Shown here in pieces: positions 12,388 through 34,396 of a stretch of DNA of 64,000 bases; the first letter of the stretch is position 1; the number at the start of each line of letters is the position of its first letter. The stretch is from an uncultured Bacteroidota bacterium (GTDB lineage: Bacteria; Bacteroidota; Bacteroidia; Bacteroidales; JAAUTT01), in contig CAWJWO010000002.1 of assembly GCA_963846585.1 (NCBI GenBank), forward strand, positions 263,592-327,591. The letters run 5' to 3'. A model generated the notes under the pieces. The model saw only the letters and a list, made by a program, of their open reading frames with translations. It was not told the DNA's origin and searched no databases. A program made the translations under genes and the position numbers.

Positions 12388-13995
12388 ATGGAAACTATAA
12401 AATCAAACATAAATACTAAATCCAAAGATTATAATAACAATGTAACTGAATATAAAAAACTCCTTTCTGATTATTATCAGCTTTTGAAAGAAATTCAATC
12501 TGGCGGTGATAATCAGGCGATAGAAAAGCATAAATCGAGAAATAAATTATTAGCCAGGGAACGTATTAATTTATTGGTAGATAATAACACCCCATTCCTG
12601 GAACTTTCATGTTTTGCTTCATTTGGACAATATAACGGAAAATTCCCTTCAGCCGGGATAATAACTGGCATAGGACTGATACATGGCCGCGAAACAATTA
12701 TAGTGGCCAACGATTCCACCGTTAAAGGAGGAACATATATTAAGGAGACTATTCGAAAACATATACGCGCCCAGGAAATTGCACTTGAGAATAAGCTTCC
12801 TTGTATATACCTGGTTGATTCAGGCGGTATATTCCTTCCTGAACAGGCAAAAGTGTTTCCGGACAGGTTCGATTTCGGGAGGATATTCTATAATCAGGCA
12901 CATTTATCTGCTGAGGGTATTCCCCAGATTTCAATAGTCATGGGCTCCTGTACCGCCGGTGGTGCATATATACCTGCAATGAGCGACGAAACTATTATAG
13001 TACGCGGTCAGGGAACTATTTTTTTAGGGGGGCCTCCGCTGGTAAAAGCCGCTACAGGTGAAATTGTTACAGCCGAAGAACTGGGAGGAGCCGAAATACA
13101 TACCTTTTTTTCAGGAGTTGCTGATCATATGGCAGACAATGATCAGCATGCCATTGAAATTTGCCGTAATATTTTTGAGACATTGCCAAAACCGGAAAAG
13201 TTTAACATAGACAGAACAAATTACGAAGAACCGGCTTTCCCATCTGAAGAATTATATGGTATTGTAAATGTGGATTTACGCAAACCTGTGGATCCGAGAG
13301 AAATTATAGCAAGAATTGTAGATGGCAGCAAATTCGCAGAGTTTAAGAGTCTTTATGGAACAACCTTAGTGACCGGTTTCGCAAGAATCATGGGATATCC
13401 TGTAGGCATTGTTGCAAATAACGGGGTTCTGTTCTCAGAATCATCCCTTAAAGGTGCACACTTTGTTGAACTTTGTAATTTCCGAAAAATTCCAATTGTA
13501 TTTTTACAAAATATAACGGGGTTTATAGTTGGCAAACAATATGAAAAAGCTGGCATAGCTCGCGACGGGGCTAAATTTGTACATGCAGTGGCCACTGCAA
13601 CGGTACCTAAGTTTACTATTATTTGCGGAGGTTCTTTTGGTGCGGGGAATTATGCAATGTCCGGCAGAGCGTACGATCCTGCATTCCTGTTTATGTGGCC
13701 AAATGCAAAGATTTCGGTAATGGGTGGCGAGCAGGCAGCTAATGTACTTGTTACAGTAAAGGAGGATCAGTCAAAATCCTCAGGGAAAGCACACAATAAA
13801 GATGAGTTATTAAAATTACATAAAAAAATTATGTCCGGATATAATGAAGAAAGTTCAGCATATTACAGTTCTTCAAGATTATGGGACGATGGTATAATTG
13901 ATCCTGCTGAAACCCGTAAAATATTGGCCCTGTGTATAGAAATAACACTAAACCGTAAGTTCCCCGCTCCAAAAAGTGGAGTGTACAGAATGTAA
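12388..13995 (+). CDS. Methylcrotonyl-CoA carboxylase beta subunit (acyl-CoA carboxyltransferase)
   Basis: 535-aa ORF, collinear with the MCCC2/LiuB type: GGAYIPAMSDETIIVRGQGTIFLGGPPLVKAATGEIVTAEELGGAEIH and GFIVGKQYEKAGIARDGAKFV. Sits in a liu-type gene context. Confidence 0.9.
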   Translation: METIKSNINTKSKDYNNNVTEYKKLLSDYYQLLKEIQSGGDNQAIEKHKSRNKLLARERINLLVDNNTPFLELSCFASFGQYNGKFPSAGIITGIGLIHGRETIIVANDSTVKGGTYIKETIRKHIRAQEIALENKLPCIYLVDSGGIFLPEQAKVFPDRFDFGRIFYNQAHLSAEGIPQISIVMGSCTAGGAYIPAMSDETIIVRGQGTIFLGGPPLVKAATGEIVTAEELGGAEIHTFFSGVADHMADNDQHAIEICRNIFETLPKPEKFNIDRTNYEEPAFPSEELYGIVNVDLRKPVDPREIIARIVDGSKFAEFKSLYGTTLVTGFARIMGYPVGIVANNGVLFSESSLKGAHFVELCNFRKIPIVFLQNITGFIVGKQYEKAGIARDGAKFVHAVATATVPKFTIICGGSFGAGNYAMSGRAYDPAFLFMWPNAKISVMGGEQAANVLVTVKEDQSKSSGKAHNKDELLKLHKKIMSGYNEESSAYYSSSRLWDDGIIDPAETRKILALCIEITLNRKFPAPKSGVYRM

Positions 13996-14341
13996 AAGGA
14001 AAGTAGGCAGAGAATGGAAGAAGGCAGAAGCAGTGGGACATGAAAAGACATGAAAAGACGTGAGACGTGAGACGTGAAAAGAAGACAGAAGGCAGAAGAC
14101 AGAAAAAAGATAAAAGATTTAAGGAAAAAGATTTGAGATTTTAGAATCTAGATTTTAGAATTGAGATTTATAAATATCAATCTGGTAAAATATATTAAAT
14201 CTTAAATCACCAATCGCAAATCTGGAATCTTAAATCAAAGAGTCTTGGCTCATGGTTCTTGGCTCTTGGCTCTGTTTTTACAACCAACAACTAAGCACTA
14301 AGCACTAAGCACTAAGCACTAAGCACTAAGCACTATATAAA
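13996..14341 (+). repeat. Composite mosaic repeat element, copy A (fills the MCCase-beta / hydratase spacer)
   Basis: Module order: purine-rich GGCAGAAG units, (GACGTGA)x3 at 14057-14077, GAAGACAGAAGGCAGAAGACAG, AGATTT/GAGATTT-rich core, agtcttggctcatggttcttggctcttggctctg at 14241-14274, caaccaacaa, then (CTAAGCA)x6 at 14291-14336, then ATG. Collinear with the reverse complement of 34108-34396. Confidence 0.85.
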
Positions 14342-15127
14342 ATGGACACATTCGAAACAATCAAAGTTGAATTAAACGAAAAAGTCGCTACCATTTACCT
14401 AAACAGGCCTGAAATACATAATGCATTTAATCATAAAATGGTACTTGAGATAATTTCTGCACTAAAGTCTGTTGCAGATAATCAAAAACTAAGAGTTTTG
14501 GTAATTCGTGGCAATGGAAAATCTTTTTGTTCCGGGGCTGACTTAAACTGGATGAAGGAAGTTGTTGAATTCGATTTTGAAAAAAATTACAATGAAAGTC
14601 TGTTATTAGCTAATTGTTTCCAAACGATTTATCATTTCCCTGTACCGGTAATTTCTTTTGGACATGGCTCAGTAATTGGTGGCGGTAATGGATTTCTGGC
14701 TACCTCAGACTTTGCAATATGTACTAAAAATACTCATTTTGCATTTACTGAAGTAAATATCGGGTTGGTGCCGGCTGTAATTTCCTATTTTATTATCAGG
14801 CGTATGGGAATAAATAAAACTAAAGAATTAATGCTCTCCGGACAACAATTCAATGGAATTGAAGCTGAACATTGGGGGCTTGTAAATTATGCGATTGACG
14901 AGTCTGATACTGAGAATTTTATAAAATCCACTATCCAAAGATTAATTGAAAAAAGTCCACAGGCGTTAAAAAGAACAAAAAATTTACTTAATAACAATGA
15001 TTTATTATTCGATGAAAATGCATTTTTAAAAGAATCGGCAATTATAATTTCTCAGGCACGTGTTTCAAAGGATGGGCAGGAAGGAATGCGATCATTTTTA
15101 GAAAAAAGACGGCCGGTATGGGATTAG
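14342..15127 (+). CDS. Enoyl-CoA hydratase/isomerase family protein (methylglutaconyl-CoA hydratase by context)
   Basis: 261-aa crotonase fold: IYLNRPEIHNAFN, GNGKSFCSGADLNWM, FGHGSVIGGGNGF, EGMRSFLEKRRPVW. Lies between the two MCCase subunit genes. Confidence 0.85.
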   Translation: MDTFETIKVELNEKVATIYLNRPEIHNAFNHKMVLEIISALKSVADNQKLRVLVIRGNGKSFCSGADLNWMKEVVEFDFEKNYNESLLLANCFQTIYHFPVPVISFGHGSVIGGGNGFLATSDFAICTKNTHFAFTEVNIGLVPAVISYFIIRRMGINKTKELMLSGQQFNGIEAEHWGLVNYAIDESDTENFIKSTIQRLIEKSPQALKRTKNLLNNNDLLFDENAFLKESAIIISQARVSKDGQEGMRSFLEKRRPVWD

Positions 15128-15179
15128 AATGAACTAATCAGGCAAAGTCTTGTTCAGATGATGCCTATAGTATCCCAAA

Positions 15180-17174
15180 ATGTTAAATTTTAGTAAAATA
15201 TTAATAGCAAACCGGGGAGAAATTGCACGGAGAATAATTCGTACAGCCCGCGAAATGGACTACAAATGTGCAGTTATTTATTCTTCCGGGGAAATAAATG
15301 CTGATTTTGTATCCGAAGCTGATGAAGCATACGATTTAGGTAATGGCAACATTCATGAAACTTACCTCAATATAACAAAAATAATTGACATTGCCCTCAG
15401 AAACGGGATTCAGGCAATTCATCCCGGTTATGGCTTTTTATCTGAAAATTATAAGTTTGCAAAAGCTTGCGAAGAAAATAACATTGTATTTATTGGGCCA
15501 ACAAGTGAAAATATAAAATTGATGAGCCAAAAAACTGCAGCCCGTGAATTTGTAAAATCACTGGGAATTCCACTTTTGGAGTCAGTTCAGGGAAACAGTC
15601 CGGAAGAATTATTGAAAAAGTCAGGGAAACTTAAATATCCTGTTATAGTAAAGGCAGATACCGGTGGTGGTGGCAAAGGCATGCAAATAGTTAAAAAACC
15701 TGAAGAACTATCAAAAATACTTGAAATTTCCCAACGGGAAGCTTTGGCATATTTTGGTGATTCAAATGTTTATCTGGAAGAATATCTTGAATATCCCCGA
15801 CACATAGAAGTTCAGATATTAGGTGATTGTTATGGCAATATTATTCATCTTTACGAAAGGGAATGTACAATTCAAAGGAGACACCAAAAAATTATTGAAG
15901 AAGCTCCTTCTCTTTGCCTGTCAGATAATTTAAGAAATAAACTGTTGGAGGCATCCTTGACTATTGCCCGGAAAATGAAGTATTTGAATGCCGGAACAAT
16001 TGAGTTTTTGGTTGATGAAAATCAGAATTTCTATTTCCTCGAAATGAATACCAGAATTCAGGTCGAACATCCGGTTACTGAAAAAATTACGGGAATAGAC
16101 CTGGTCAGGGAACAACTGAATATTGCTTCCGGAAACCGGCTTAATTTTAAACAGGAAGATATTTCGGTCAATGGCCATGCTATAGAAAGCCGTATATATG
16201 CTGAAAACCCTTTTAATGAATTTTTGCCTTCAGTGGGATCAGTAATAAAATATCAGGAACCAACAGGCAGGTCTGTAAGAATTGATTCTGCATTATCAGG
16301 CCCTGCCCTGATATCTTCGGATTTTGACCCAATGATTGCCAAGGTAATCTCAGGTGATTTGAACAGGGAAAGCGCCAGGCTTAACCTTATCAGGTTTCTG
16401 CAGCAATATATTATACATGGAATTGATACAAATATTCCATATCTGATTGAGATTTTAAATAATCCAGGATTTATACAAAACTCATATTCAACATCATTTT
16501 GTAAAGATTCCAAAAATATGCTTCAGGCTTCGTATATTAAAAAAATGCATGGATTATCTATAGAACTTATAACTGCCGCTTTCCTGATTTTTACTTTCCC
16601 GTTTTTAATAAATCATGTCAATACAAATGATAACAGGGTATGGAAAAGTTTAGGATATTGGAGAAATATAATGGTTACAGAAATAAATATATTGGATGTC
16701 AATTATAACATAACATTTAAAAAGCAAGGCACAGATAACTTTACATTTTGTATTAATGAAAAAGTCCCGTTACTGGTGAAAGGCCGGGAAAAGAACGGAA
16801 GGGTAGATTTTTTATTCTCCGGTCAAAGACATGTAGCTTTTATTTCATCTTTAAGTGATATTTATTATTTATCTATTAATGGAAATACATATACAATCCG
16901 GCGTAATGATATCACAAAAACAAAATTTGTAAAAGAAAGCGGCCTGAATTCATTTAACCAACAAAACAAGATATTGGCCACCATAAATGGCAAGATTATA
17001 AAAATGAATGTAAAAATGAATGAAAAAGTAAACAAAGGAGATATATTAATGGTTGTTGAATCAATGAAAATGGAAAACTACATTCTTGCTCCTAAAGGGG
17101 GAAAAATCACTAATATTTGTGTTAACACAGGTGACCTGGTAAAAGGCAGGGATGTGTTGGCCATTTTAACGTAA
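15180..17174 (+). CDS. Methylcrotonyl-CoA carboxylase alpha subunit (biotin carboxylase + BCCP domain)
   Basis: 664-aa ORF. Biotin carboxylase N-terminus KILIANRGEIARRIIRT, ATP-grasp GGGGKGM, EMNTRIQVEHPVTE, and a C-terminal biotinyl-lysine motif VESMKMEN. Confidence 0.9.
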   Translation: MLNFSKILIANRGEIARRIIRTAREMDYKCAVIYSSGEINADFVSEADEAYDLGNGNIHETYLNITKIIDIALRNGIQAIHPGYGFLSENYKFAKACEENNIVFIGPTSENIKLMSQKTAAREFVKSLGIPLLESVQGNSPEELLKKSGKLKYPVIVKADTGGGGKGMQIVKKPEELSKILEISQREALAYFGDSNVYLEEYLEYPRHIEVQILGDCYGNIIHLYERECTIQRRHQKIIEEAPSLCLSDNLRNKLLEASLTIARKMKYLNAGTIEFLVDENQNFYFLEMNTRIQVEHPVTEKITGIDLVREQLNIASGNRLNFKQEDISVNGHAIESRIYAENPFNEFLPSVGSVIKYQEPTGRSVRIDSALSGPALISSDFDPMIAKVISGDLNRESARLNLIRFLQQYIIHGIDTNIPYLIEILNNPGFIQNSYSTSFCKDSKNMLQASYIKKMHGLSIELITAAFLIFTFPFLINHVNTNDNRVWKSLGYWRNIMVTEINILDVNYNITFKKQGTDNFTFCINEKVPLLVKGREKNGRVDFLFSGQRHVAFISSLSDIYYLSINGNTYTIRRNDITKTKFVKESGLNSFNQQNKILATINGKIIKMNVKMNEKVNKGDILMVVESMKMENYILAPKGGKITNICVNTGDLVKGRDVLAILT

Positions 17175-17178
17175 AAAA

Positions 17179-17357
17179 GTGCTTAGTGCTTAGTGCAAAG
17201 TGCATAGTACAGCAATATGCCGGCATTAAAAGCCTTCAAAAAATAACGTGCTAAAATAGTGAATTTAATATTATAAAAACAAGTCACATAAGAAGATTAT
17301 ACAACATTACAACATTACAACATTACAACATTACAACATTTACAACTTTACAACATT
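17179..17357 (+). repeat. TAGTGCW array (17179-17210) and (ACAACATT)n array (17301-17357)
   Basis: gtgcttagtgcttagtgcaaagtgcatagtac starts 5 nt after the MCCase-alpha stop. acaacatt x5 followed by tacaactttacaacatt lies 43 nt upstream of the ACAD start. Confidence 0.9.
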
Positions 17358-17399
17358 AAAATTTTTATAATATAATATATATTAATACACCCCTTATAT

Positions 17400-18545
17400 A
17401 TGGATATTTATTCAAATGGTGCTCATGAGACGTTAAGACAAAAAGTTAAAAATTTTGCTGAAAATGAAGTTCGGCCCAAGGCACGTGAACTGGATGAAAA
17501 AGAACAATTTTCTCCTGAATTGAGCCTTAGAATGGGTGAACTGGGGTTATTCGGGCTTACAATTCCAAAAAAATACGGGGGACAGGGATATGATTATCTT
17601 TCATTAATTATAGCTGTGGAAGAACTTGCCAGGGTGGATAGCTCCCAGGCAGCCATTTTAGCCTCACATAATTCGCTTGGTATTGGTCCAATATATAATT
17701 ACGGAACTGAGGAACAACGCAAAAAGTATTTACCACAACTTTGTAATGGAAAAGCACTTTGGGCCTTTGGACTTACTGAAAACAATGCCGGATCAGATTC
17801 CCGCAGTACCGAATCCATCGCCTTATTAGATAACGATCATTGGATTATAAACGGAACAAAGATTTTTATTTCCAACGCTTCTGCACCAATTTCGGCTGGC
17901 GTTACTATCCAGGTAATTACTGGCCAAAACGATGGGCAAAAAGAGCTTTCCACAATTATTGTTGAACAGGGAACAAAGGGATATCGTGCCGAAAAAATTC
18001 ATGGAAAAATGATGTGGCGCGCCATCGATACTGCACGTTTGTATTTCGATAATGTAATTGTTCCTAAAGATAATTTATTGGGAGGATTAGGCAAAGGATC
18101 GGGGATTATGCTTGAAACTTTAGATTCAGGCAGATTATCAATAGCAGCTATGGGACTCGGTTTAGCAACCGGAGCCTTCGAAATGGCTATGAATTATTCA
18201 CATAAACGATGGCAATTTGGAAAACCTATTGCCAAATTTCAATCTATTGGCTTCAAATTAGCAGATATGGCTACCAAAATAGAACTGGCAAGAAATATAC
18301 TTTATAAAGCATGCTGGCTTAAAGATTCTAACCAACCTTTTGCAAAAGAAGCTGCCATGGCAAAACTATATTGTTCCGAAATTGCAAAAGAAATTGCTGA
18401 TGAATCACTTCAAATACATGGAGCCTATGGACTAATGCGCGAATACGATATTGAACGGTTTTACCGCGATCAAAGATTATTGCAAATTGGTGAAGGTACT
18501 TCAGAAATACTGAGAATAGTTATATCAAAACATCTTGGAATATAG
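17400..18545 (+). CDS. Acyl-CoA dehydrogenase (isovaleryl-CoA dehydrogenase-like by context)
   Basis: 381-aa ORF with ACAD motifs: WAFGLTENNAGSD, QFGKPIAKFQ, ERFYRDQRLLQIGEGTSEI. Substrate cannot be assigned from sequence alone. Confidence 0.85.
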   Translation: MDIYSNGAHETLRQKVKNFAENEVRPKARELDEKEQFSPELSLRMGELGLFGLTIPKKYGGQGYDYLSLIIAVEELARVDSSQAAILASHNSLGIGPIYNYGTEEQRKKYLPQLCNGKALWAFGLTENNAGSDSRSTESIALLDNDHWIINGTKIFISNASAPISAGVTIQVITGQNDGQKELSTIIVEQGTKGYRAEKIHGKMMWRAIDTARLYFDNVIVPKDNLLGGLGKGSGIMLETLDSGRLSIAAMGLGLATGAFEMAMNYSHKRWQFGKPIAKFQSIGFKLADMATKIELARNILYKACWLKDSNQPFAKEAAMAKLYCSEIAKEIADESLQIHGAYGLMREYDIERFYRDQRLLQIGEGTSEILRIVISKHLGI

Positions 18546-18549
18546 AATT

Positions 18550-18580
18550 TAGTGCATAGTGCTTAGTGCATAGTGCTTAG
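18550..18580 (+). repeat. TAGTGCW heptamer array
   Basis: tagtgcatagtgcttagtgcatagtgcttag, 5 nt after the ACAD stop. Confidence 0.9.
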
Positions 18581-18848
18581 GAGTAAGAGATTAGTATATT
18601 TATAAATTTTAAAACATTTTAATAGACTTGTAACTTGAAACCAGTAACTATTTACATACTACTTACTAATGCGAATTAAGAGTTAAAATATTTATACTTA
18701 TTATCTAATAATTAGCAGAATATCATTTACATTAGCCAACTTTAACCCCAACCCCTTAAAAAGCATAGCCGTCAGGTTATGTCTATATAGAGCAGAATGA
18801 TAGATATTTAGTGTAAATGTAATAAAATATTAGTGTAATTAAGAGCGT

Positions 18849-19337
18849 ATGTCAACGACTGGATTTGTATATATTATGACCAATAAGAACAAAACAACTT
18901 TATATATTGGGGTTACAAACAATTTATGCAGAAGAATACATGAGCATAAAAATCATTTGATAAATGACACTTTTACAGATAAGTACAATATTGAATACTG
19001 TATTTATTACGAAGAATTTCAATATTTTGATTTGGCAATACAAAGAGAAAAAGAATTAAAAAAGTGGAACCGTCAAAAGTTTATTTCGAGTGACGCGAGA
19101 AAACTCAAGATTAACAAAAAGAACCCCGAATGGAAAGTGCTGGTAACAGAGCGTGGCTTTGTTCGGAATAATAAATCATTTTCTCAACATGTTTCGGACA
19201 TAGTCAATGAATTACAACCAATTAAAGAGATTCCTCCCTGCGGTCGGAATGACGACCAGCAGAATTGTGGCGTTGCTGGAGGTGAAGAGAGTGCGGCAAA
19301 GCCGCACTCTCTTCACCTCCAGCTCTCTGACCAATAA
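18849..19337 (+). CDS. GIY-YIG nuclease family protein (COG2827-like) with atypical C-terminal extension
   Basis: N-terminal GFVYIMTNKNKTTLYIGVTNNLCRRIHEH...YYEEF...AIQREKELKKWNR is the GIY-YIG core. The last roughly 60 codons run through a GC-rich hairpin region and are probably not a native domain. A 9-codon in-frame insert (ISSDARKLK, about 19082-19108) overlaps a repeat-motif copy at 19080-19106. Confidence 0.75.
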   Translation: MSTTGFVYIMTNKNKTTLYIGVTNNLCRRIHEHKNHLINDTFTDKYNIEYCIYYEEFQYFDLAIQREKELKKWNRQKFISSDARKLKINKKNPEWKVLVTERGFVRNNKSFSQHVSDIVNELQPIKEIPPCGRNDDQQNCGVAGGEESAAKPHSLHLQLSDQ

Positions 19338-19369
19338 CGACAGTCATTTCGAGCGAAGCGAGAAATCTC
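19227..19369 (+). other. GC-rich compound stem-loop region at the 3-prime end of the GIY-YIG ORF
   Basis: The outer 27-nt arms 19227-19253 (gagattcctccctgcggtcggaatgac) and 19343-19369 (gtcatttcgagcgaagcgagaaatctc) are 22/27 complementary. They enclose a 6-bp hairpin (19256-19279) and a perfect 23-bp stem (19275-19323). Confidence 0.6.
19275..19323 (+). other. Perfect 23-bp inverted repeat with a 3-nt loop
   Basis: gctggaggtgaagagagtgcggc-aaa-gccgcactctcttcacctccagc read directly. GC-rich, inside an AT-rich locus. Confidence 0.9.
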
Positions 19370-19514
19370 AAATAAAGTATTATAATTGTATATAAGCATT
19401 TTACAAGCGTTAACCTGACGGCTATGCCTTTTTAAGGGGTTGGGGTTAAAAAATACTAAAATGAATAAATATTGTCTTGAATAATTATAACAATAATTAA
19501 ATCCTTAATTCGCA

Positions 19515-19535
19515 TTACGACTTACGACTTACGAC
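19515..19535 (+). repeat. (TTACGAC)x3 array
   Basis: ttacgacttacgacttacgac ends 7 nt before the fni ATG. The same unit occurs at 12305-12318 and 61692-61705. Confidence 0.9.
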
Positions 19536-19542
19536 TAAATTT

Positions 19543-20535
19543 ATGAATGATAGAAAAAAGGACCATATTGAACTGGCTTTGCAAGCTCAAACCTGCAAAA
19601 ATGAATTAGATATCAGGTTTGACTATGAACCATTATTGGCTGCTCATCCTAAAGGTGGGTTACCTTCATTTAATTTTCTTGGAAAAACTTTCCGTGCTCC
19701 TTTATGGGTATCCAGCATGACAGGTGGAACGAAAACAGCTGCTAATATTAACAGAAACCTCGCCATGTCATGTAAAGAATTCGGTTTCGGGATGGGTCTG
19801 GGTTCCTGTCGTGTACTTATTGACAATGATGATTATTTTGGAGATTTTAACGTTCGTGATATTATTGGCGATGATTTGCCTTTGTTTGCCAACCTGGGAA
19901 TTTGCCAGGTTGAACAACTTATTGAGAACGGAAAAACAGAAAAAATCATAAGATTGCGTGAAAAGCTGCGGGCAGACGGGTTAATAATACATGTTAATCC
20001 ATTGCAGGAATGGTATCAAAAAGAAGGAGATAAATTAAAATATCCTCCAATTGAGACAATTAAAAAATTGATTGACAAAACAGATATGCCTCTGATTGTT
20101 AAAGAAGTAGGTCAAGGTATAGGCCCGGCAAGCCTCAGTGCTTTATTTAAATTGCCACTTGCAGCAATTGAATTTGCCGCATTTGGAGGAACTAATTTCT
20201 CGAAACTTGAACTTATGCGTAATTCTTCGCAATTGAATGAAATTTTTGAACCTCTTACGAAAGTTGGAATGGATGCATTTCAAATGCTTGAAATTGTCAA
20301 TAATATTGTCAATACAGAAAAAAATCCCGGGTGTAATCAAATTATTATTAGTGGCGGGATTAACTCATTTTTAGACGGGTATTACCTGGTACAAAAGTCA
20401 CTTTTACAGGCTGTTTATGGACAGGCATCTTCAATGCTAAAATATGCTAAGGAAGATTATGTACAATTGCAATCTTATATTTCTCAACAAATCAAAGGGC
20501 TGGAGATAGCTTATGCCTTTTTACGAATAAAGTAA
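19543..20535 (+). CDS. fni: Type 2 isopentenyl-diphosphate delta-isomerase (FMN-dependent)
   Basis: 330-aa ORF: RKKDHIELAL, PLWVSSMTGGT, IVKEVGQGIGP, AAFGGTNF, typical of IDI-2. Confidence 0.9.
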   Translation: MNDRKKDHIELALQAQTCKNELDIRFDYEPLLAAHPKGGLPSFNFLGKTFRAPLWVSSMTGGTKTAANINRNLAMSCKEFGFGMGLGSCRVLIDNDDYFGDFNVRDIIGDDLPLFANLGICQVEQLIENGKTEKIIRLREKLRADGLIIHVNPLQEWYQKEGDKLKYPPIETIKKLIDKTDMPLIVKEVGQGIGPASLSALFKLPLAAIEFAAFGGTNFSKLELMRNSSQLNEIFEPLTKVGMDAFQMLEIVNNIVNTEKNPGCNQIIISGGINSFLDGYYLVQKSLLQAVYGQASSMLKYAKEDYVQLQSYISQQIKGLEIAYAFLRIK

Positions 20536-20554
20536 TTGAATTAAATTCATTTAC

Positions 20555-21862
20555 ATGCAAAGAAATATTGTAAACGGTTTCTCAAAGCTAACCAAGGAAG
20601 AAAAAATTGAATCCTTATCAGGTATCCTTAACTTGCCAATGCTTAATGAAAAATTAAAATCATTCTGGCATAATACAAATCAGCAACTTTTCGATGAGTT
20701 TAGCGAAAATTCAATCTCCAACTATTATTTGCCCTATAGTATTGCTCCAAATTTCCTGATTAATGAAACTATCTGCCATATACCTATGGTAACTGAAGAA
20801 AGTTCAGTTGTTGCTGCAGCTGCAGCTGCAGCTAAATTTTGGTTTCATAATGGAGGTTTTAAGGCTGATGTTATATCTATGCAAAAATCCGGCCATGTAC
20901 ACTTTATTCTTTCTGGTGATAAACAAATTTTGTTTAACCATTGGACAATGCTTAAAAACGTGTTCCATCAAAACATAAAATCCATTAATTCCAATATGAT
21001 AAAACGGGGAGGCGGCGTGTTGGATATCAGTCTTGAAGATTGTACCTCATTGCTGAAAGATTATTGCCAGATATCGGTAACTTTTGATACGGTCGACTCA
21101 ATGGGTGCTAATTATATAAATTCTATTCTGGAACAAATAGCTTTAACCCTGTGCAATTATTGTTCTGAGAATTTATTAAATCAGGTACATTGTCAGGTGA
21201 TAATGTCAATACTTTCTAATTATACTCCAAATTGTAAAGTAATATGCAAAGTTGAAGCTCCCGTTTCAGTTTTTAATAAAAACGAAATGGGTATATCCAC
21301 TGCAGGATTTATCGAAAAATTCTTAATTGCCATTCGTATAGCGGAATCGGATATATACAGATGTGTAACTCACAACAAAGGAATAATGAATGGCATAGAT
21401 GCAGTTTTATTAGCTACCGGCAACGATTTTAGAGCCGTTGAAGCCGATGTACACGCTTATGCATCACGAACCGGTAAATATTCATCATTATCATTTGCTG
21501 ATGTGGAGGATGGTATATTTAAGTTTAATTTAGAATTGCCAATGAATATAGGTGTTATCGGAGGTGCGACTTCCCTTCATCCTTTAGCCGCCTTGTCACT
21601 TGAAATTCTTGGAAATCCTGATGCCAGACAATTAATGATGATTATTGCTGCAGCAGGTTTGGCTACTCATTTCTCAGCAATAAAAGCTTTGGTTACTGAA
21701 GGGATTCAGAATGGCCATATGAAAATGCACATAATTAATATATTACATCAAATGCATGCAACCGAAGAGGAGAAAAAAGAAGTTTATAAATGGTTCGAAA
21801 ACAAAACAATTACTTTTAATGAAGTTATCGAACTATTGAATAACCTTCGAAAGAATATATAA
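20555..21862 (+). CDS. Hydroxymethylglutaryl-CoA reductase, class II
   Basis: 435-aa ORF: ENSISNYYLPYSIAPNFLIN...IPMVTEESSVVAAAAAAAKFW, DSMGANYINS, HNKGIMNGIDAVLLATGNDFRAVEA, and the GHMKMH C-terminal motif. Confidence 0.9.
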   Translation: MQRNIVNGFSKLTKEEKIESLSGILNLPMLNEKLKSFWHNTNQQLFDEFSENSISNYYLPYSIAPNFLINETICHIPMVTEESSVVAAAAAAAKFWFHNGGFKADVISMQKSGHVHFILSGDKQILFNHWTMLKNVFHQNIKSINSNMIKRGGGVLDISLEDCTSLLKDYCQISVTFDTVDSMGANYINSILEQIALTLCNYCSENLLNQVHCQVIMSILSNYTPNCKVICKVEAPVSVFNKNEMGISTAGFIEKFLIAIRIAESDIYRCVTHNKGIMNGIDAVLLATGNDFRAVEADVHAYASRTGKYSSLSFADVEDGIFKFNLELPMNIGVIGGATSLHPLAALSLEILGNPDARQLMMIIAAAGLATHFSAIKALVTEGIQNGHMKMHIINILHQMHATEEEKKEVYKWFENKTITFNEVIELLNNLRKNI

Positions 21863-21875
21863 CTCATATTGTTTA

Positions 21876-22811
21876 GTGATAATTTCCGCCAAATCATATT
21901 ATTCCAATGGAAAACTCCTGTTAACCGGTGAATATCTTGTAATGTACGGCGCTAAAGCGTTGGCAATTCCTGTAAAATTTGGTCAATCAATTAGTATTAC
22001 TGAACATTCCGGAGATAATAAATTGGTTTGGGTAGCTAAAGAATATGGAAAAAATTGGTTTAAAGCAGTTTTTTCTTCCAAAACGCTTACTGTTGAAGAA
22101 TATTCAGATATACAAATTGTAAAACGTTTGCAGAAGATTATAAATGAGGCAAAATTATTAAACCAACAATTTATTAAAGAAGATTCCGGTTATTTGATTG
22201 AAACAAATTTAAACTTTAACAGATACTGGGGGTTGGGTACAAGTTCAACATTAATATCCAATATTGCCCTTTGGGCAAATATTGATCCATTTTGGCTTAA
22301 CCGGAAAGTTTCAAATGGATCAGGTTACGATATTGCCTGTGCTGAATCGGCATCATCAATTATTTATCAACTCAATAAACAAATTCCTGTCATTAAAAAT
22401 GTCTCTTTTAATCCAATATTCAGGGACAAAATATATTTTATATACCTTGAGAAAAAACAAGATTCCGCTGCCAGTATAGAAATCTTAAATCAAAAACAAT
22501 CATTATTTTTAAAAGAAATAAAACAAATATCTGACCTGACGGAAAAGTTTTTAAATGCCGGCTCAATTGAAGAAGTTATCCCTGTTATTAAGGCTCATGA
22601 AACAATCATCAGTTCACTATTAAATATCCCTGCTATTCAAAATACATTATTCCCGGATTTTACAGGTATAATAAAATCTCTTGGTGCCTGGGGCGGAGAT
22701 TTTATTATGGCAATTTCTTCAATGAATAAAAATTCGGTTGAACAATACTTCAGGGATAAGGGTTTCCCTGTAATAATACCTTTTGACGAAATGGTACTGA
22801 ATAGTGCTTAG
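21876..22811 (+). CDS. GYDIA-family GHMP kinase (putative phosphomevalonate kinase of the Bacteroidota MVA pathway)
   Basis: 311-aa ORF with GTG start. GKLLLTGEYLVMYGAKALAIPV, GHMP motif GLGTSSTLISN, and the signature GSGYDIACA. The last two codons and the stop lie inside the TAGTGC repeat array. Confidence 0.7.
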   Translation: MIISAKSYYSNGKLLLTGEYLVMYGAKALAIPVKFGQSISITEHSGDNKLVWVAKEYGKNWFKAVFSSKTLTVEEYSDIQIVKRLQKIINEAKLLNQQFIKEDSGYLIETNLNFNRYWGLGTSSTLISNIALWANIDPFWLNRKVSNGSGYDIACAESASSIIYQLNKQIPVIKNVSFNPIFRDKIYFIYLEKKQDSAASIEILNQKQSLFLKEIKQISDLTEKFLNAGSIEEVIPVIKAHETIISSLLNIPAIQNTLFPDFTGIIKSLGAWGGDFIMAISSMNKNSVEQYFRDKGFPVIIPFDEMVLNSA

Positions 22812-22867
22812 TGCATAGTGCATAGTGCATAGTGCTTAATGATTAGTGCTAAATGATTAGTGCTTAG
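22802..22867 (+). repeat. TAGTGCW heptamer array (about 9 units, degenerate at the distal end)
   Basis: tagtgcttagtgcatagtgcatagtgcatagtgcttaatgattagtgctaaatgattagtgcttag. Contains the stop codon of the GYDIA kinase gene. Confidence 0.9.
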
Positions 22868-22901
22868 AACATATTATTTATATATATTAGTTAACAACAT
22901 T

Positions 22902-23990
22902 ATGAGCTTAATGTCAGCTAAATCTGTTAAATACTCCTATTTGCCAAAAGAAAGTACAGGCAAGGTTACATGGCGATGCCCTTCAAACATAGCCCTTATT
23001 AAATATTGGGGGAAACAGGAACAGCAGTTGCCCTTAAACCCTTCCTTAAGTTTCACATTAAATAATTCTTACACCGAAACATCTGTTGAATATGAATATA
23101 TTGAAGATTCTGCAGCACCTCGGATACATTTTATTTCGGATGATATAGATGGCTATTTATTTGAAAAAAGAGTTAAAGAATTTATTAAAAGCCTTATTAT
23201 AGATATTCCTGTTTTGCAAAAGATGAATCTGATTATCCATTCGAAAAATAATTTTCCACATTCTGCAGGCATTGCATCATCTGCTTCAGCTTTTGGTTCA
23301 TTAGCCTTATGTTTATGTTACATAGAAAACCTTGTGACAGGATCACTTAACGGATCAATGGATTTTTTCCGGAAAGCTTCATATATTTCCAGATTAGGTT
23401 CAGGCAGCGCATGCAGGTCTATATATGGAGGTTTTGTAAGTTGGGGGTCAATTGAAGAATATCCTGAATTTTCAAATTTATTTGCCCAACCTCTTCCGTT
23501 TGAAATACATCCTGTCTTTAAAGGTACACATGACACTATATTAATTGTTTCCTCTAAGAAGAAAAAACTTTCAAGCAGCGCCGGACACAATTTAATGGTA
23601 AAACATCCATACGCTTATGGCCGGTATGAGCAGGCTAAACAAAATTATGTATTATTATTAAAGTCGTTACAAAATGGTGACATGGTTAACTTTATAAAAA
23701 TTGTTGAAAATGAGGCCCTCAGCCTACATGCACTTTTGTTTTCTTCTGAAGGTGGGCATATTTTATTAAAACCGGAAAGCATAATGATAATTGATAAAAT
23801 TGTTAATTTCCGGATGGCATCGGATATTCCTGTATGTTTTACTATAGATGCCGGCCCAAATTTACATATAATTTATCCCCTGAAATATAAAGATAAGGTT
23901 TCAGCATTTATTCAATCTGAACTATTAATTTATTGTGAAAATTCAAAATACATTGATGACCAAATAGGAAACGGCCCTGTAAAACTATGA
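22902..23990 (+). CDS. mvaD: Diphosphomevalonate decarboxylase
   Basis: PSNIALIKYWGK, NFPHSAGIASSASAF, LGSGSACRSIYGGFVSW, FTIDAGPNLHI. The track start at 22860 (GTG) lies inside the repeat array, so the ATG at 22902 is more plausible. Confidence 0.9.
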   Translation: MSLMSAKSVKYSYLPKESTGKVTWRCPSNIALIKYWGKQEQQLPLNPSLSFTLNNSYTETSVEYEYIEDSAAPRIHFISDDIDGYLFEKRVKEFIKSLIIDIPVLQKMNLIIHSKNNFPHSAGIASSASAFGSLALCLCYIENLVTGSLNGSMDFFRKASYISRLGSGSACRSIYGGFVSWGSIEEYPEFSNLFAQPLPFEIHPVFKGTHDTILIVSSKKKKLSSSAGHNLMVKHPYAYGRYEQAKQNYVLLLKSLQNGDMVNFIKIVENEALSLHALLFSSEGGHILLKPESIMIIDKIVNFRMASDIPVCFTIDAGPNLHIIYPLKYKDKVSAFIQSELLIYCENSKYIDDQIGNGPVKL

Positions 23991-24940
23991 GGAAATTTTC
24001 TGAGGTTTATCCTAAATTGCTTTTGCTGGGTGAATATAGCATCCTGCTGGGAGGGAATGCCTTAACATTGCCTTTGAGAATATTTAATGCACAATTTGAT
24101 TTTTTAATTAAGGCAAATGATACAGAGGCAGCCATAAGATCGAATAGAATTTTAAAAAATTTTTTAAAATTCATTCGTGGCAATGAATTAATTATTAATA
24201 ATATAAATTTTACTCGCCTTGCCAGTGATATCAATAATGGTTTATATGTAAAATCCAATATTCCGACCGGATACGGGCTTGGCAGCTCCGGATCAGTATG
24301 TGCCGCAATTTTGAAATCATATTCTAAAATTAAATTACCTGCTAAAATATCTCAAATTGAAACATTCAGAATAAAGTCAATTTTAGCCTCAATGGAATCG
24401 TTTTTTCATGGAATAAGTTCAGGAATAGATCCTTTAGCCTGTTATTTCAACTGTTCAATTCTTATAAAAGATACATCAATTGCAAGCCTGCATAATTTGT
24501 GTTTGCCAAAAACCCATATGTTTTTACTTGATTCGGATATTCAAAGAAATAGCCAGTTATTGATAGAAACCTTTACCGATGATTATAAGGATCAGGAATA
24601 TAAAATGTCCTTTAATAAAGACTACATTCCATATGTTAACAGTTTAATTGATACAATTATTGATTTTAATTATAATAAAAAGTATGATCATATTAAGAAC
24701 CGTAATAACTATTATAATTTATGGGAAGGCCTGTCTATTCTTCAATTTAAATTCTTTAATAAAATGATCCCTGATAATATACTGCCTTTATGGGAATCAG
24801 GATTAAATTCAGGTTTGTATTTTCTTAAATTACTGGGTGCTGGAGGTGGTGGTTACTTTTTAGGATTTACCAATAATAAAATTAAAACCGAAACATTCCT
24901 GGCTAATAATGGCTATAAGTTAATATGGCCGGAATTATGA
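23987..24940 (+). CDS. mvk: Mevalonate kinase (Bacteroidota-type GHMP kinase)
   Basis: 317-aa ORF overlapping the upstream stop (ATGA coupling). KLLLLGEYSILLGGNALTLP, GHMP motif PTGYGLGSSGSVCAA, C-terminal LGAGGGGYFLGF. Confidence 0.7.
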   Translation: MRKFSEVYPKLLLLGEYSILLGGNALTLPLRIFNAQFDFLIKANDTEAAIRSNRILKNFLKFIRGNELIINNINFTRLASDINNGLYVKSNIPTGYGLGSSGSVCAAILKSYSKIKLPAKISQIETFRIKSILASMESFFHGISSGIDPLACYFNCSILIKDTSIASLHNLCLPKTHMFLLDSDIQRNSQLLIETFTDDYKDQEYKMSFNKDYIPYVNSLIDTIIDFNYNKKYDHIKNRNNYYNLWEGLSILQFKFFNKMIPDNILPLWESGLNSGLYFLKLLGAGGGGYFLGFTNNKIKTETFLANNGYKLIWPEL

Positions 24941-28067: not shown

Positions 28068-28877
28068 TTGAAAAAAATGTTGCAGTTTTACCGGATGAAT
28101 TATGTGACCCCTAAAAAAAGCCTGGGACAGCATTTCCTGAAGGACCGGAATATTGCCCAAAAAATTGTGTCTGGCATACTGCCCGGTAACATAGCAACTG
28201 TTTTAGAAATCGGTCCCGGAATGGGTATACTTACAGGATTCCTCTTGGAAAACCCTGCCTATACTACCTATGCAGTTGAAATAGACCGTGAATCAATAAA
28301 TTATCTTTCTGCTAACTATCCGGAAATTACAAACAGGATAATTTCAGGAAATTTTCTGGACCTTGAACTTTCGGAAATTGTTCCAATCCCAATGATAATT
28401 ATTGGCAATTTCCCCTATAATATAGGATCTCAAATTTTTTTTAAAATATTGGATAACAAAAATATAGTTCAGCAAGTAGTATGTATGGTGCAGAAGGAAG
28501 TAGCTGAGCGCATTGCCTCAAGGCCATCCTCCAGGACCTATGGAATTTTAAGCGTGTTGCTGCAGGCGTTTTATAATATAGAATATCTTTTTACCGTGAA
28601 CGAACATGTTTTCTCTCCTCCCCCTAAAGTAAAATCAGCTGTTATAAGGCTTACAAGAAACAATACCAAAGAATTGGCATGTGATGAAAGGCTATTTTTT
28701 AAAGTAGTTAAAACTTCATTTAACCAGCGGCGAAAAACCATTCATAATTCCTTGAAAAGTATAGTGAAAGAACATCCCGAAAATGATATTTTCCGTAAAA
28801 GGCCAGAACAATTGAATGTTGCTGAATTTGTTACATTAACAAATATAGTTAATCAGTGCTTAGTGCATAGTGCTTAG
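28068..28877 (+). CDS. rsmA: 16S rRNA (adenine1518-N6/adenine1519-N6)-dimethyltransferase
   Basis: PKKSLGQHFL, LEIGPGMGILT, GNFPYNIGSQI, FNQRRK. The real start is probably an ATG at 28077 or 28095. The last six codons (CLVHSA) and the stop are encoded by the TAGTGC array. Confidence 0.9.
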   Translation: MKKMLQFYRMNYVTPKKSLGQHFLKDRNIAQKIVSGILPGNIATVLEIGPGMGILTGFLLENPAYTTYAVEIDRESINYLSANYPEITNRIISGNFLDLELSEIVPIPMIIIGNFPYNIGSQIFFKILDNKNIVQQVVCMVQKEVAERIASRPSSRTYGILSVLLQAFYNIEYLFTVNEHVFSPPPKVKSAVIRLTRNNTKELACDERLFFKVVKTSFNQRRKTIHNSLKSIVKEHPENDIFRKRPEQLNVAEFVTLTNIVNQCLVHSA

Positions 28878-29028
28878 TTGTTGGTTGTTAGTTGTTAGTT
28901 GTTAGTTGTTGGTTGTTAGTTTTTAGTTGTTGGTTGTTAGTTGTTAGGAAATTATACAACCTTTACAACCTTTACAACCTTTACAACCAATTTCAATTTT
29001 ATAAACCTTATAAACCAATTTTCAAATT
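28855..29028 (+). repeat. Four-module mosaic: TAGTGCW, (TTAGTTG)~10, (TACAACCTT)x3.7, (TTATAAACC)x2
   Basis: 28855-28877 agtgcttagtgcatagtgcttag. 28874-28947 ttagttgttggttgttagttgttagttgttagttgttggttgttagtttttagttgttggttgttagttgttag. 28955-28988 tacaaccttx3+tacaacc. 28999-29016 ttataaaccttataaacc. 29017-29028 aattttcaaatt. Confidence 0.9.
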
Positions 29029-29135
29029 ATCTCAATGAAATATTATAAAAGTTTGATTTAACGAAACAATTGTCATAAACTTTTATATTTTTGAAACTTT
29101 GTTTGAAAATTAAGTATAAAAAATATAACTTAAGA

Positions 29136-34107: not shown

Positions 34108-34396
34108 TATAAAATAGTGATTAGTGCTTAGTTGTTAGTTGCAAAAACAGAGCCAGGAGCCAAGAACCAGGAGCCAAGACTTTATGATGATTCTAGATTT
34201 AATATTTTAATAGTCTTTCTAAATTGTAAATCTTAAATCTCAAATCTGGAATCTCAAATCTTTTATCTTTTTTCTGTCTTCTGCCTTCTGTTTTCTGATT
34301 GCTGTCTTCTTTTCACGTCTCACGTCCCACGTCTCACGTCCCATATCTTGGTCTTGGTTCCTGGCTCTTGGCTCTTGGTTCCAACCTGAAATTACA
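34108..34396 (-). repeat. Composite mosaic repeat element, copy B (fills the thyA / folA spacer)
   Basis: The reverse complement reads ggaaccaagagccaagagccagg..., (GACGTGR)x4, gaaaagaagacag...cagaaggcagaagacagaaaaaagataaaagatttgagatt..., aagtcttggctcctggttcttggctcctggctctgtttttgcaactaacaactaagcactaatcacta, then the ATG of folA. This is collinear with copy A. Confidence 0.85.

Follow-up and report, generated by a model that had tools for sequence, protein, structure and literature searches.

A 665-bp insertion-sequence-like unit with an Ssn-type GIY-YIG nuclease as its only gene and a dispersed hairpin repeat as its target

A nuclease gene unit between ACAD and fni

The stretch of DNA investigated here (the window) comprises 64,000 nucleotides of contig CAWJWO010000002.1 from an uncultured Bacteroidales bacterium and contains a small GIY-YIG nuclease gene enclosed by inverted repeats. 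The gene is found between the acyl-CoA dehydrogenase (ACAD) gene, which ends a leucine-catabolism block, and fni, which opens a mevalonate block. The genes from 12388 to 24940 form a co-directional run (carboxyltransferase, enoyl-CoA hydratase, biotin carboxylase, ACAD, then fni, HMG-CoA reductase, MVD and kinase), of which the GIY-YIG unit is the only interruption, as an earlier note on this DNA had stated. Positions 18763-19427 are probably one copy of a 665-bp element that resembles an insertion sequence (IS), has an Ssn-type nuclease gene as its only open reading frame (ORF), and inserts in the hairpin of a dispersed host repeat, here called M, with an 8-bp duplication; its own nuclease would make the nicks.

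The nested inverted repeats that the note had placed around the ORF are present and exceed chance. The inner one is 39/40 nt, with arms at 18741-18779 and 19411-19449 (97.5% identical, one indel), and its outer 23 nt, TTTAACCCCAACCCCTTAAAAAG, are perfect in both arms. With up to 3 mismatches allowed, this 23-mer has only two sites in the window, where shuffled sequences are expected to have 0. The outer pair, TAATGCGAATTAAG at 18667-18680 and 19504-19517, is perfect and unique in the window (expected 0.04), and extends imperfectly to about 38 nt with an alignment score of 40, the best of 1000 shuffles reaching 36.

Where does the unit end? The 90%-identity cluster of the window protein contains at least 24 variants, many of them on long contigs of the same ENA sample series. 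Sister loci were taken for three of these variants and, in addition, for L087; they come from that sample series, with L169-L171 from other samples. The unit is present in at least six unrelated gene contexts, the window included: between ACAD and fni (window), an Mrr-like nuclease gene and YjeF (L087), a hypothetical gene next to hemerythrin and a nitroreductase gene (L176, L177), genes for a TonB-dependent receptor and an ABC transporter (L178), a hypothetical gene and an esterase gene (L179), and an acetyltransferase gene and a hypothetical gene (L180, L181). All six carry characteristic heptamer arrays. The units of L176-L181 are 98.1-100% identical to that of the window, and those of L177 and L178 have 0 mismatches over 665 bp at unrelated loci, while most pairs of flanks are 62-82% identical; the exception is the window against L179, at 85-90%. 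The spread of the element is very recent.

Homology between the copies stops at GCATAGCC on one side and GGCTATGC on the other, and the more distant copies L087, L169, L170 and L171 share these unit ends, L087 being an older copy in which they have decayed. The terminal inverted repeat (TIR) is the inner 18 nt, GCATAGCCGTCAGGYTAA, of the 39-nt repeat, and is present at both ends of every copy of the gene unit; the left TIR of the window copy has a 1-nt deletion relative to the sister copies. The note was right that the gene lies in a discrete unit with terminal inverted repeats, the sister copies having sharp common ends, and its proposed search for further copies has been answered by a unit that is multicopy. 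Its choice of the whole 38/39-nt repeat as the terminus does not stand, as all but the inner 18 nt consist of inverted M copies.

The short-read contig L001 (Logan ERR11523656), which is identical to the window, starts at 19431, the junction between unit and flank. This break independently indicates that the sample contains more than one copy of the unit.

The junctions of the sister copies identify the target. In L176 and L177 they read CCC[CTTAAAAA]GCATAGCC...GGCTATGC[CTTAAAAA]GGGGCTATAAC, and in L178 and L180/L181 they read GCCCC[TTTTTAAG]GCATAGCC...GGCTATGC[TTTTTAAG]GGGTTGGGGTTAA, where TTTTTAAG is the reverse complement of CTTAAAAA. An 8-bp direct duplication thus flanks the unit in L176, L177, L178, L180 and L181, with diverged versions in L170 and L171. 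Deletion of the unit together with one 8-bp repeat restores the M consensus tTTAACCCCAACCCCTTAAAAAGGGGCtATAAc, which was derived independently. These junctions place each unit inside a single M hairpin, facing one way or the other and with duplication of the same 8 bp. The hairpin sequence that receives the element is CCCCTTAAAAAGGGG.

From the carboxyltransferase to a GAF gene, gene order is unchanged in the nearest relatives, whose fni is 71-74% identical. The ACAD and fni genes overlap by 4 nt in L172 and are 92 nt apart in L173-L175, as against 997 nt in the window. The junction between them is unoccupied in these relatives, as the note's mobile interpretation had required; this holds at the level of the family and is not a strain-level polymorphism.

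The unit has the defined ends with TIRs of an IS, and several copies at unrelated sites in what appears to be a single genome. No transposase gene is called within 2.5-5 kb of any of the seven contexts, and within that range the earlier statement that there is no transposase besides the GIY-YIG protein holds. No partner element bounded by these ends was found among the 181 loci compared, and the 18-nt TIR has no match in viral contigs. The coordinates of the features are given in Table 1.

Table 1. Features of the unit, its flanking arms and the adjoining genes in the window
Feature	Position	Strand	Evidence
ACAD gene, left neighbour, ends leucine-catabolism block	17400..18545	+	ORF
Host heptamer tandem array TAGTGCA/TAGTGCT, outside the element	18549..18580		TRF
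Left arm: left part of long M, forward	18667..18762	+	Homologous to left flanks of L176/L177 and L179
CTTAAAAA, part of the M hairpin (8 bp), duplicated directly on either side of sister copies	18755..18762	+	L176/L177; reverse complement in L178, L180/L181
The 665-bp mobile unit: TIR, conserved 5' leader, Ssn-type GIY-YIG gene, 3' hairpin module and second TIR	18763..19427	+	Sister-copy homology ends exactly here
Left TIR GCATAGCCGTCAGGTTAT	18763..18780	+	Conserved at both ends of all copies
GIY-YIG ORF, 162 aa	18849..19337	+	Pfam GIY-YIG PF01541, E = 1.2e-15, residues 5-76
In-frame SRM-like sequence inside the ORF, net +18 nt	19078..19107	+	Direct repeat with 19346-19369; absent in most homologues and in P0249/L179
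SRM-like unit GTCGTCATTCCGACCGCAGGGAGGAATCTC, overlaps conserved C-terminal codons	19226..19255	-	Relaxed SRM pattern; fails published strict pattern
Perfect 23-bp GC-rich hairpin, 3-nt loop	19275..19323		DNA fold -31.7 kcal/mol, z = -10.5
SRM-like unit GTCATTTCGAGCGAAGCGAGAAATCTC	19341..19369	+	Relaxed SRM pattern; recurrence in subfamily
Right TIR, reverse complement GCATAGCCGTCAGGTTAA	19410..19427	-	Conserved at both ends of all copies
Right arm: long M, reverse orientation	19428..19517	-	Same right flank as L178, L180, L179
Host heptamer array TTACGAC x3, outside the element	19515..19536		TRF
fni (type 2 isopentenyl-diphosphate isomerase), right neighbour, opens mevalonate block	19543..20535	+	ORF; source names of homologues

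The M repeat and the composite arms of the window copy

The usual form of M, tTTAACCCCAACCCCTTAAAAAGGGGCtATAAc, is a short hairpin, and its consensus was derived from 94 copies in GTDB genomes. It begins with TTAA followed by CCCCAACCCC. The motif TTAACCCCAACCCCTTAA is present in 84 loci of GTDB genomes, almost all of them metagenome-assembled genomes (MAGs) of Bacteroidales or Bacteroidota, with up to a dozen copies per genome among the matches listed. A GIY-YIG gene is found within 8 kb at only 2 of these 84 loci and adjoins M at neither. The 18-nt motif CCCCAACCCC was considered as the element's own end and rejected, as 82 of the 84 loci with the motif have no GIY-YIG gene within 8 kb, and in L178 and L180 the left side of the element abuts GTTATAGCCCC instead. 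TTAA, which the note had proposed as the target duplication, is part of M, and the sister copies duplicate the 8 bp CTTAAAAA. The outer 14-nt repeat was likewise rejected as a separate, nested element, being the distal end of the long-M repeat. Rfam searches of the window and six M-bearing loci at gathering and E-value thresholds returned nothing at the gathering score and only chance microRNA-like hairpin matches.

Across many Bacteroidales and Bacteroidota MAGs (L003-L086) the M repeat (TTAACCCCAACCCCTTAAAAAGGGGCTATAAC) is multicopy. It occurs as single copies, as inverted doublets (L022 1522-1600) and in tandem at 105-nt spacing (L053 5785-6012), with another example at L056 5828-5914, and is often paired with a second, related hairpin, GTTAGCCCTCCTTTTTAAGGAGGGTTGGGAGGT.

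Some loci have the ends of the element and no gene. In a MAG from another Bacteroidales organism (DATBXH01), L026 has an ORF-less element of 305 bp at 313-617, with the same 18-nt ends and in an M hairpin. Isolated 18-nt ends abut M hairpins in L042 (~1844), L046 (123-241) and L034 (931-948). Such ORF-less elements and ends may be derivatives resembling miniature inverted-repeat transposable elements (MITEs). The 665-bp unit itself differs from a MITE, which has no coding gene, in that a conserved ORF is present.

In the window copy the flanks of the unit are unusual. The left arm includes the outer 14-nt repeat (18667-18680) as well as the M core TTAACCCCAACCCCTTAAAAA (18742-18762), which matches the consensus of the 94 GTDB-genome copies. 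It is 82% identical to L176/L177 over a 120-nt left flank, and about 92% identical to L179. The homology with the left flank of L176/L177 reaches out to TAATGCG, which indicates that M is about 100 nt long in this organism and that the 14-nt repeat is its far end on both sides. The right arm, in reverse, consists of an extra C (19428), TTTTTAAG (19429-19436), GGGTTGGGGTTAA (the rest of the M stem and the core) and the outer 14-nt repeat (19504-19517). Because inverted M halves flank the element in the window, the 18-bp ends look extended to 39 nt. A long inverted repeat around a gene can therefore be a short true terminus plus inverted copies of a target repeat, and annotation should allow for this.

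Window positions ~18663-19508 align with L179, at a different locus, and the extra C is included. Since L179 shares the entire arrangement, a composite of about 850 bp exists at two loci; its M arms are about 92% identical between the two and the units inside 98%. The direct duplication is absent in the window copy and in L179, where the flanks are inverted. These chimeric flanks may have arisen when two copies inserted in opposite directions recombined. Alternatively, the element may have entered an M doublet like that of L022, what remained of the palindrome being lost afterwards; the additional C at 19428 agrees better with this second route. The composite would have landed between ACAD and fni, which are adjacent genes in relatives.

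The Ssn-type nuclease and the hairpins of the unit

Coding sequence conserved in the family extends to ~19253 (residue 135, '...EIPPCGRND', where the family has 'EIPPxGRND'). The last 27 codons of the window ORF are read-through into the downstream hairpins, and it is this that brings it to 162 aa. In an alignment of 22 homologues, Y19, G21, R28, R29, E32, H33 and E67 are invariant and Y8 is nearly so. More than 1000 homologues are found at E < 1e-5, mostly on Bacteroidota metagenome contigs, the closest being 60-91% identical and typically 126-135 aa. Many are on contigs of only 0.6-1.3 kb, as is seen with repeated DNA in short-read assemblies. Five DNA copies have a bias of substitutions to the third codon position in the catalytic domain, weaker in the extension after residue 95, and the nuclease gene is apparently under purifying selection across copies.

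The window protein has a 6-aa in-frame insertion, KFISSDARKLKI in place of KKEDLI, in a stretch that is otherwise near-invariant. The DNA of this insertion is a copy of a hairpin-like unit also found just after the gene. The in-frame SRM-like sequence is present in most copies of this organism and absent from the otherwise near-identical P0249 (L179), and for this reason the 18-nt indel must be recent and polymorphic.

Small GIY-YIG proteins of this kind now have a published family. Chenal et al. (2025, PMC11893778) described the Ssn family (cd10448), whose members are small GIY-YIG proteins of a single domain and cleave single-stranded DNA next to hairpin repeats, NTS/SRM (CGTCATTCCCGCGMAVGCGGGAATCYRG). 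Such repeats are near 71% of Ssn genes and on both sides of 42%; the arrangement of repeat, gene and repeat was called 'identical to' that of an IS, and an analogy was drawn with repetitive extragenic palindromic (REP) sequences and their associated RAYT proteins (PMC11893778). Mobility, terminal repeats and target duplications were not shown, and for Neisseria ssnA domestication was proposed, for example in control of recombination or transformation (PMC11893778). The note regarded small COG2827-type GIY-YIG genes between inverted repeats as an uncharacterised class, a view now out of date. We found no report in the literature of a bacterial GIY-YIG element with a target duplication.

In 80 metagenome loci that encode relatives of the window protein, ten genes are bracketed by an inverted pair of strict SRM hairpins. 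Over ~95 residues, the products of these ten genes (88-128 aa, mostly 94-104 aa) are 46-56% identical to the window protein, which on this basis belongs by sequence with the Ssn single-stranded DNA nucleases. It departs from the Ssn single-domain length of ~94 aa, the conserved length in this subfamily being 126-135 aa with a coding extension after residue 95. As a GIY-YIG protein it is also distinct from the HUH Y1 protein of REP/RAYT systems. A PDB sequence search with the protein found no match, and NCBIfam no specific family. An AlphaFold model from the 22-sequence alignment had a mean pLDDT of 52, too low for a fold search.

The unit contains several hairpins. Within the TIR is a small one, TAGCC-GTCA-GGYTA, that pairs in 95.7% of cells compared with 4-57% in slid controls, with one compensatory change only; the pairing is good and the covariation too thin to prove selection for structure. 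Relaxed SRM-like units are found at 19083(+), 19229-19253(-) and 19343-19367(+), all in the 3' half of the gene or after it. They are named SRM-like by sequence only, because the strict pattern, HGTCWYN(0-2)YYVSBRHN(0-5)WNVSBRGN(0-2)RNCYNB, has 0 matches in the window. The units at 19226-19255 and 19341-19369 can enclose the GC-rich hairpin between them in one long stem (z = -11.4). This 3' module, two convergent SRM-like units around a GC hairpin, recurs behind the gene throughout the subfamily with varying hairpin sequences. An SRM-like unit at the position of the first is also present in L087-L092, L096, L098 and L169-L170, and in L087-L092, L096 and L098 a hairpin of different sequence takes the place of the GC hairpin.

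The loop of the 23-bp GC hairpin (19298-19300) is AAA, TTT or AAT in otherwise identical copies (window, L169, L176, L178, L179), and in L087 and L088-L092 the stem differs on both arms with pairing still perfect. This variation suggests hairpin-templated correction or selection for structure.

The more distant subfamily members L089 (~1630-1790) and L090 (1-147) have the SRM-like(-)/GC-hairpin/SRM-like(+) module upstream of the gene too, and not only downstream, and have no GCATAGCC-type end; the architecture of the element therefore varies within the subfamily. In a 5.3-Mb genome (ENA ERZ21878447), the subfamily member P0101 (L088 5001-5390) has hsdM on one side and the genes for Bro-N, hsdS and hsdR on the other, all part of a type I restriction-modification operon, and is followed by the same SRM-like/GC-hairpin module.

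Mobilisation, related systems and surrounding arrays

How might the unit move? The element's own nuclease, whose relatives act on single-stranded DNA beside hairpins and on nothing else, would make staggered nicks in both strands of an M hairpin that is extruded and single-stranded. The 8-bp duplication would come from the offset of these nicks across the hairpin apex, and host repair or ligation would join the ends and complete integration. The locus suggests, without proving, that the Ssn-type nuclease family is able to drive its own spread. The wider proposal, that an Ssn-type GIY-YIG nuclease is the mobilising enzyme of an unrecognised IS class of ~0.65 kb with hairpin-bearing ends, integrating into REP-like hairpins, is a tentative one that we consider somewhat doubtful.

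Several observations weigh against the 665-bp unit being an element that its own nuclease inserts. GIY-YIG enzymes hydrolyse DNA, and we know of no strand-transfer, rejoining or transposition chemistry for the fold, which leaves the integration step without an assigned enzyme. The combination of an 18-bp TIR and an 8-bp duplication is what DDE transposition classically produces, and an unseen transposase may have acted in trans. That all copies are in one genome is unproven, being inferred from shared samples, shared heptamer arrays and near-identity. With one sequence common to all M copies, a single original duplication that recombination then copied would look just like duplications made at each insertion. 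Strict SRM hairpins are missing from the window, and the SRM-like units fold weakly under standard DNA parameters. Between the window and L087, codon changes are 12 non-synonymous to 7 synonymous, which indicates relaxed constraint. The window copy itself has no direct duplication, its flanks being inverted M halves plus an extra C. With the left-TIR deletion, the 6-aa insertion and the inverted flanks, this copy may be inactive.

The unit could instead be a non-autonomous passenger, with a conventional transposase encoded elsewhere, for example of the DDE type, recognising the GCATAGCCGTCAGGYTAA ends in trans and the nuclease as cargo, for instance for addiction, defence or recombination control. 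We judge this unlikely, if worth taking seriously: TIR and direct duplication fit DDE chemistry, GIY-YIG enzymes are not known to join DNA, and elements with the same ends and no ORF exist (L026, in an M hairpin), as do isolated ends in L034, L042 and L046. However, no transposase gene is called within 2.5-5 kb of the seven contexts, no partner element was found in the 181 loci, the TIR is unmatched in viral contigs, and insertion in a hairpin suits a nuclease specific for single-stranded and hairpin DNA. Furthermore, it is this gene family that constantly accompanies the flanking hairpin repeats across bacteria (PMC11893778). The ORF-less L026 elements would fit homing equally well, and GIY-YIG enzymes are classic homing nucleases. 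Here the nuclease would break empty M hairpins and repair would copy the occupied M, so that the unit and a duplication made once would spread by recombination. The target is multicopy and supplies identical flanks, the same 8 bp is duplicated at all occupied sites, and the units (98-100%) are more uniform than the long-M arms (~92%, window against L179), as gene conversion would give. Yet the shared flank identity covers only ~11-23 nt of the M core before divergence (62-82% in most pairs), which is short for RecA-type repair, and the unit is present in both orientations relative to M (L176 against L178/L180), which simple homing from one donor would not predict. Homing is the less probable of these two explanations and improbable overall.

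Explanations without mobility fare worse. A domesticated, immobile Ssn gene could serve the host and have accumulated REP-like repeats around it, as domestication was proposed for Neisseria ssnA (PMC11893778), and in other genomes M repeats are abundant independently of the gene. It is hard to reconcile with identical 665-bp copies that have sharp common ends and a duplicated target at unrelated loci, with the absence of the gene from the ACAD-fni junction in relatives, and with the 24 or more protein variants, at least 90% identical, that this sample series contains; we regard it as very improbable. Less probable still is a role at the RNA level: the note had suggested that the long repeats sequester the ORF by pairing in RNA, and such a helix might also regulate the gene or act as an operon insulator. 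If transcribed, the region would give a 39-bp helix, and the 3' module folds strongly, but in sister copies the outer 23 nt of the two sides are not complementary and only the 18-bp TIR is; left and right arms diverge independently, with no compensatory changes seen between them, and nothing in Rfam matches.

The closest known system is Ssn/SsnA of Neisseria meningitidis, which shares the small GIY-YIG sequence family, hairpin units of the form GTCATTYC...GRAATC and the IS-like gene architecture. The element described here differs in that its protein has a conserved extension of ~35 aa, its SRM-like units are both downstream around a GC hairpin and not one on each side of the gene, and it has distinct 18-bp TIRs, a defined target in the M hairpin and a target duplication of 8 bp. 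Its mobility is evident, whereas in Ssn it is a hypothesis only. REP/RAYT systems and REPINs likewise combine a single nuclease gene with short, palindromic, high-copy repeats and inverted doublets. RAYTs are HUH Y1 enzymes, usually single-copy and immobile, and it is their REPs that multiply. In the present case the unit with the gene exists in several copies, and M, the abundant repeat, serves as its target and is unrelated in sequence to the unit's hairpins. Site-specific insertion into extragenic palindromes with a short target duplication is also known from IS elements that target REP sequences (Tobes and Pareja 2006, PMC1525189). These encode DDE transposases of 1-1.5 kb, while this element encodes only a GIY-YIG nuclease of ~130 aa. 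IS1397 and ISKpn1 are likewise IS elements that target REP sequences. The IS200/IS605 elements share very small size, subterminal hairpins and recognition of single-stranded or hairpin DNA but, unlike this element, have a HUH transposase, a covalent intermediate, no TIRs and no target duplication. In I-TevI-type homing genes and Penelope-like retroelements a GIY-YIG nuclease opens the target for a selfish element. I-TevI-type enzymes have a separate DNA-binding domain and are found in introns or free-standing, without TIRs or target duplication, and Penelope elements need a reverse transcriptase, in both cases unlike this element.

In 2025 the Ssn family stood as hairpin-guided single-stranded DNA nucleases with IS-like genes, their mobility left as a hypothesis. 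This locus appears to be the first clear Ssn case with exact ends, terminal repeats, a target duplication, a specific target and identical copies at unrelated sites; ends, target, duplication and evident mobility are what is new relative to the published work. Can a GIY-YIG hydrolase of ~130 aa drive transposition, and how is the DNA rejoined? Both questions are now testable, with the M hairpin, the 18-bp ends and the SRM-like units as defined substrates. If the nuclease does mobilise the element, it would be a fifth nuclease chemistry in bacterial transposition beside the DDE, HUH, serine and tyrosine enzymes, and would explain the hairpin repeats that flank Ssn genes across bacteria.

Two observations concern the DNA around the unit. 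The same ACAD gene has Pfam Acyl-CoA_dh domains in L002. The window has 57 tandem arrays of 7-9-nt units (for example at 14037-14335, 17178-17358, 18549-18580, 19515-19536, 22798-22867, 28855-29030 and 34150-34378), and the unit differs in almost every array (TAGTGCT, TTAGTTG, TCTTGGC, ACTTACG and ATAAACCTT among them). Heptamer-type arrays make up 23% of the intergenic DNA of the window and almost none of its coding DNA, and at least one is present in 21 of the 33 intergenic gaps longer than 40 nt. Similar arrays are found in L087 and L176-L181, and in other Bacteroidales MAGs they directly follow M repeats.

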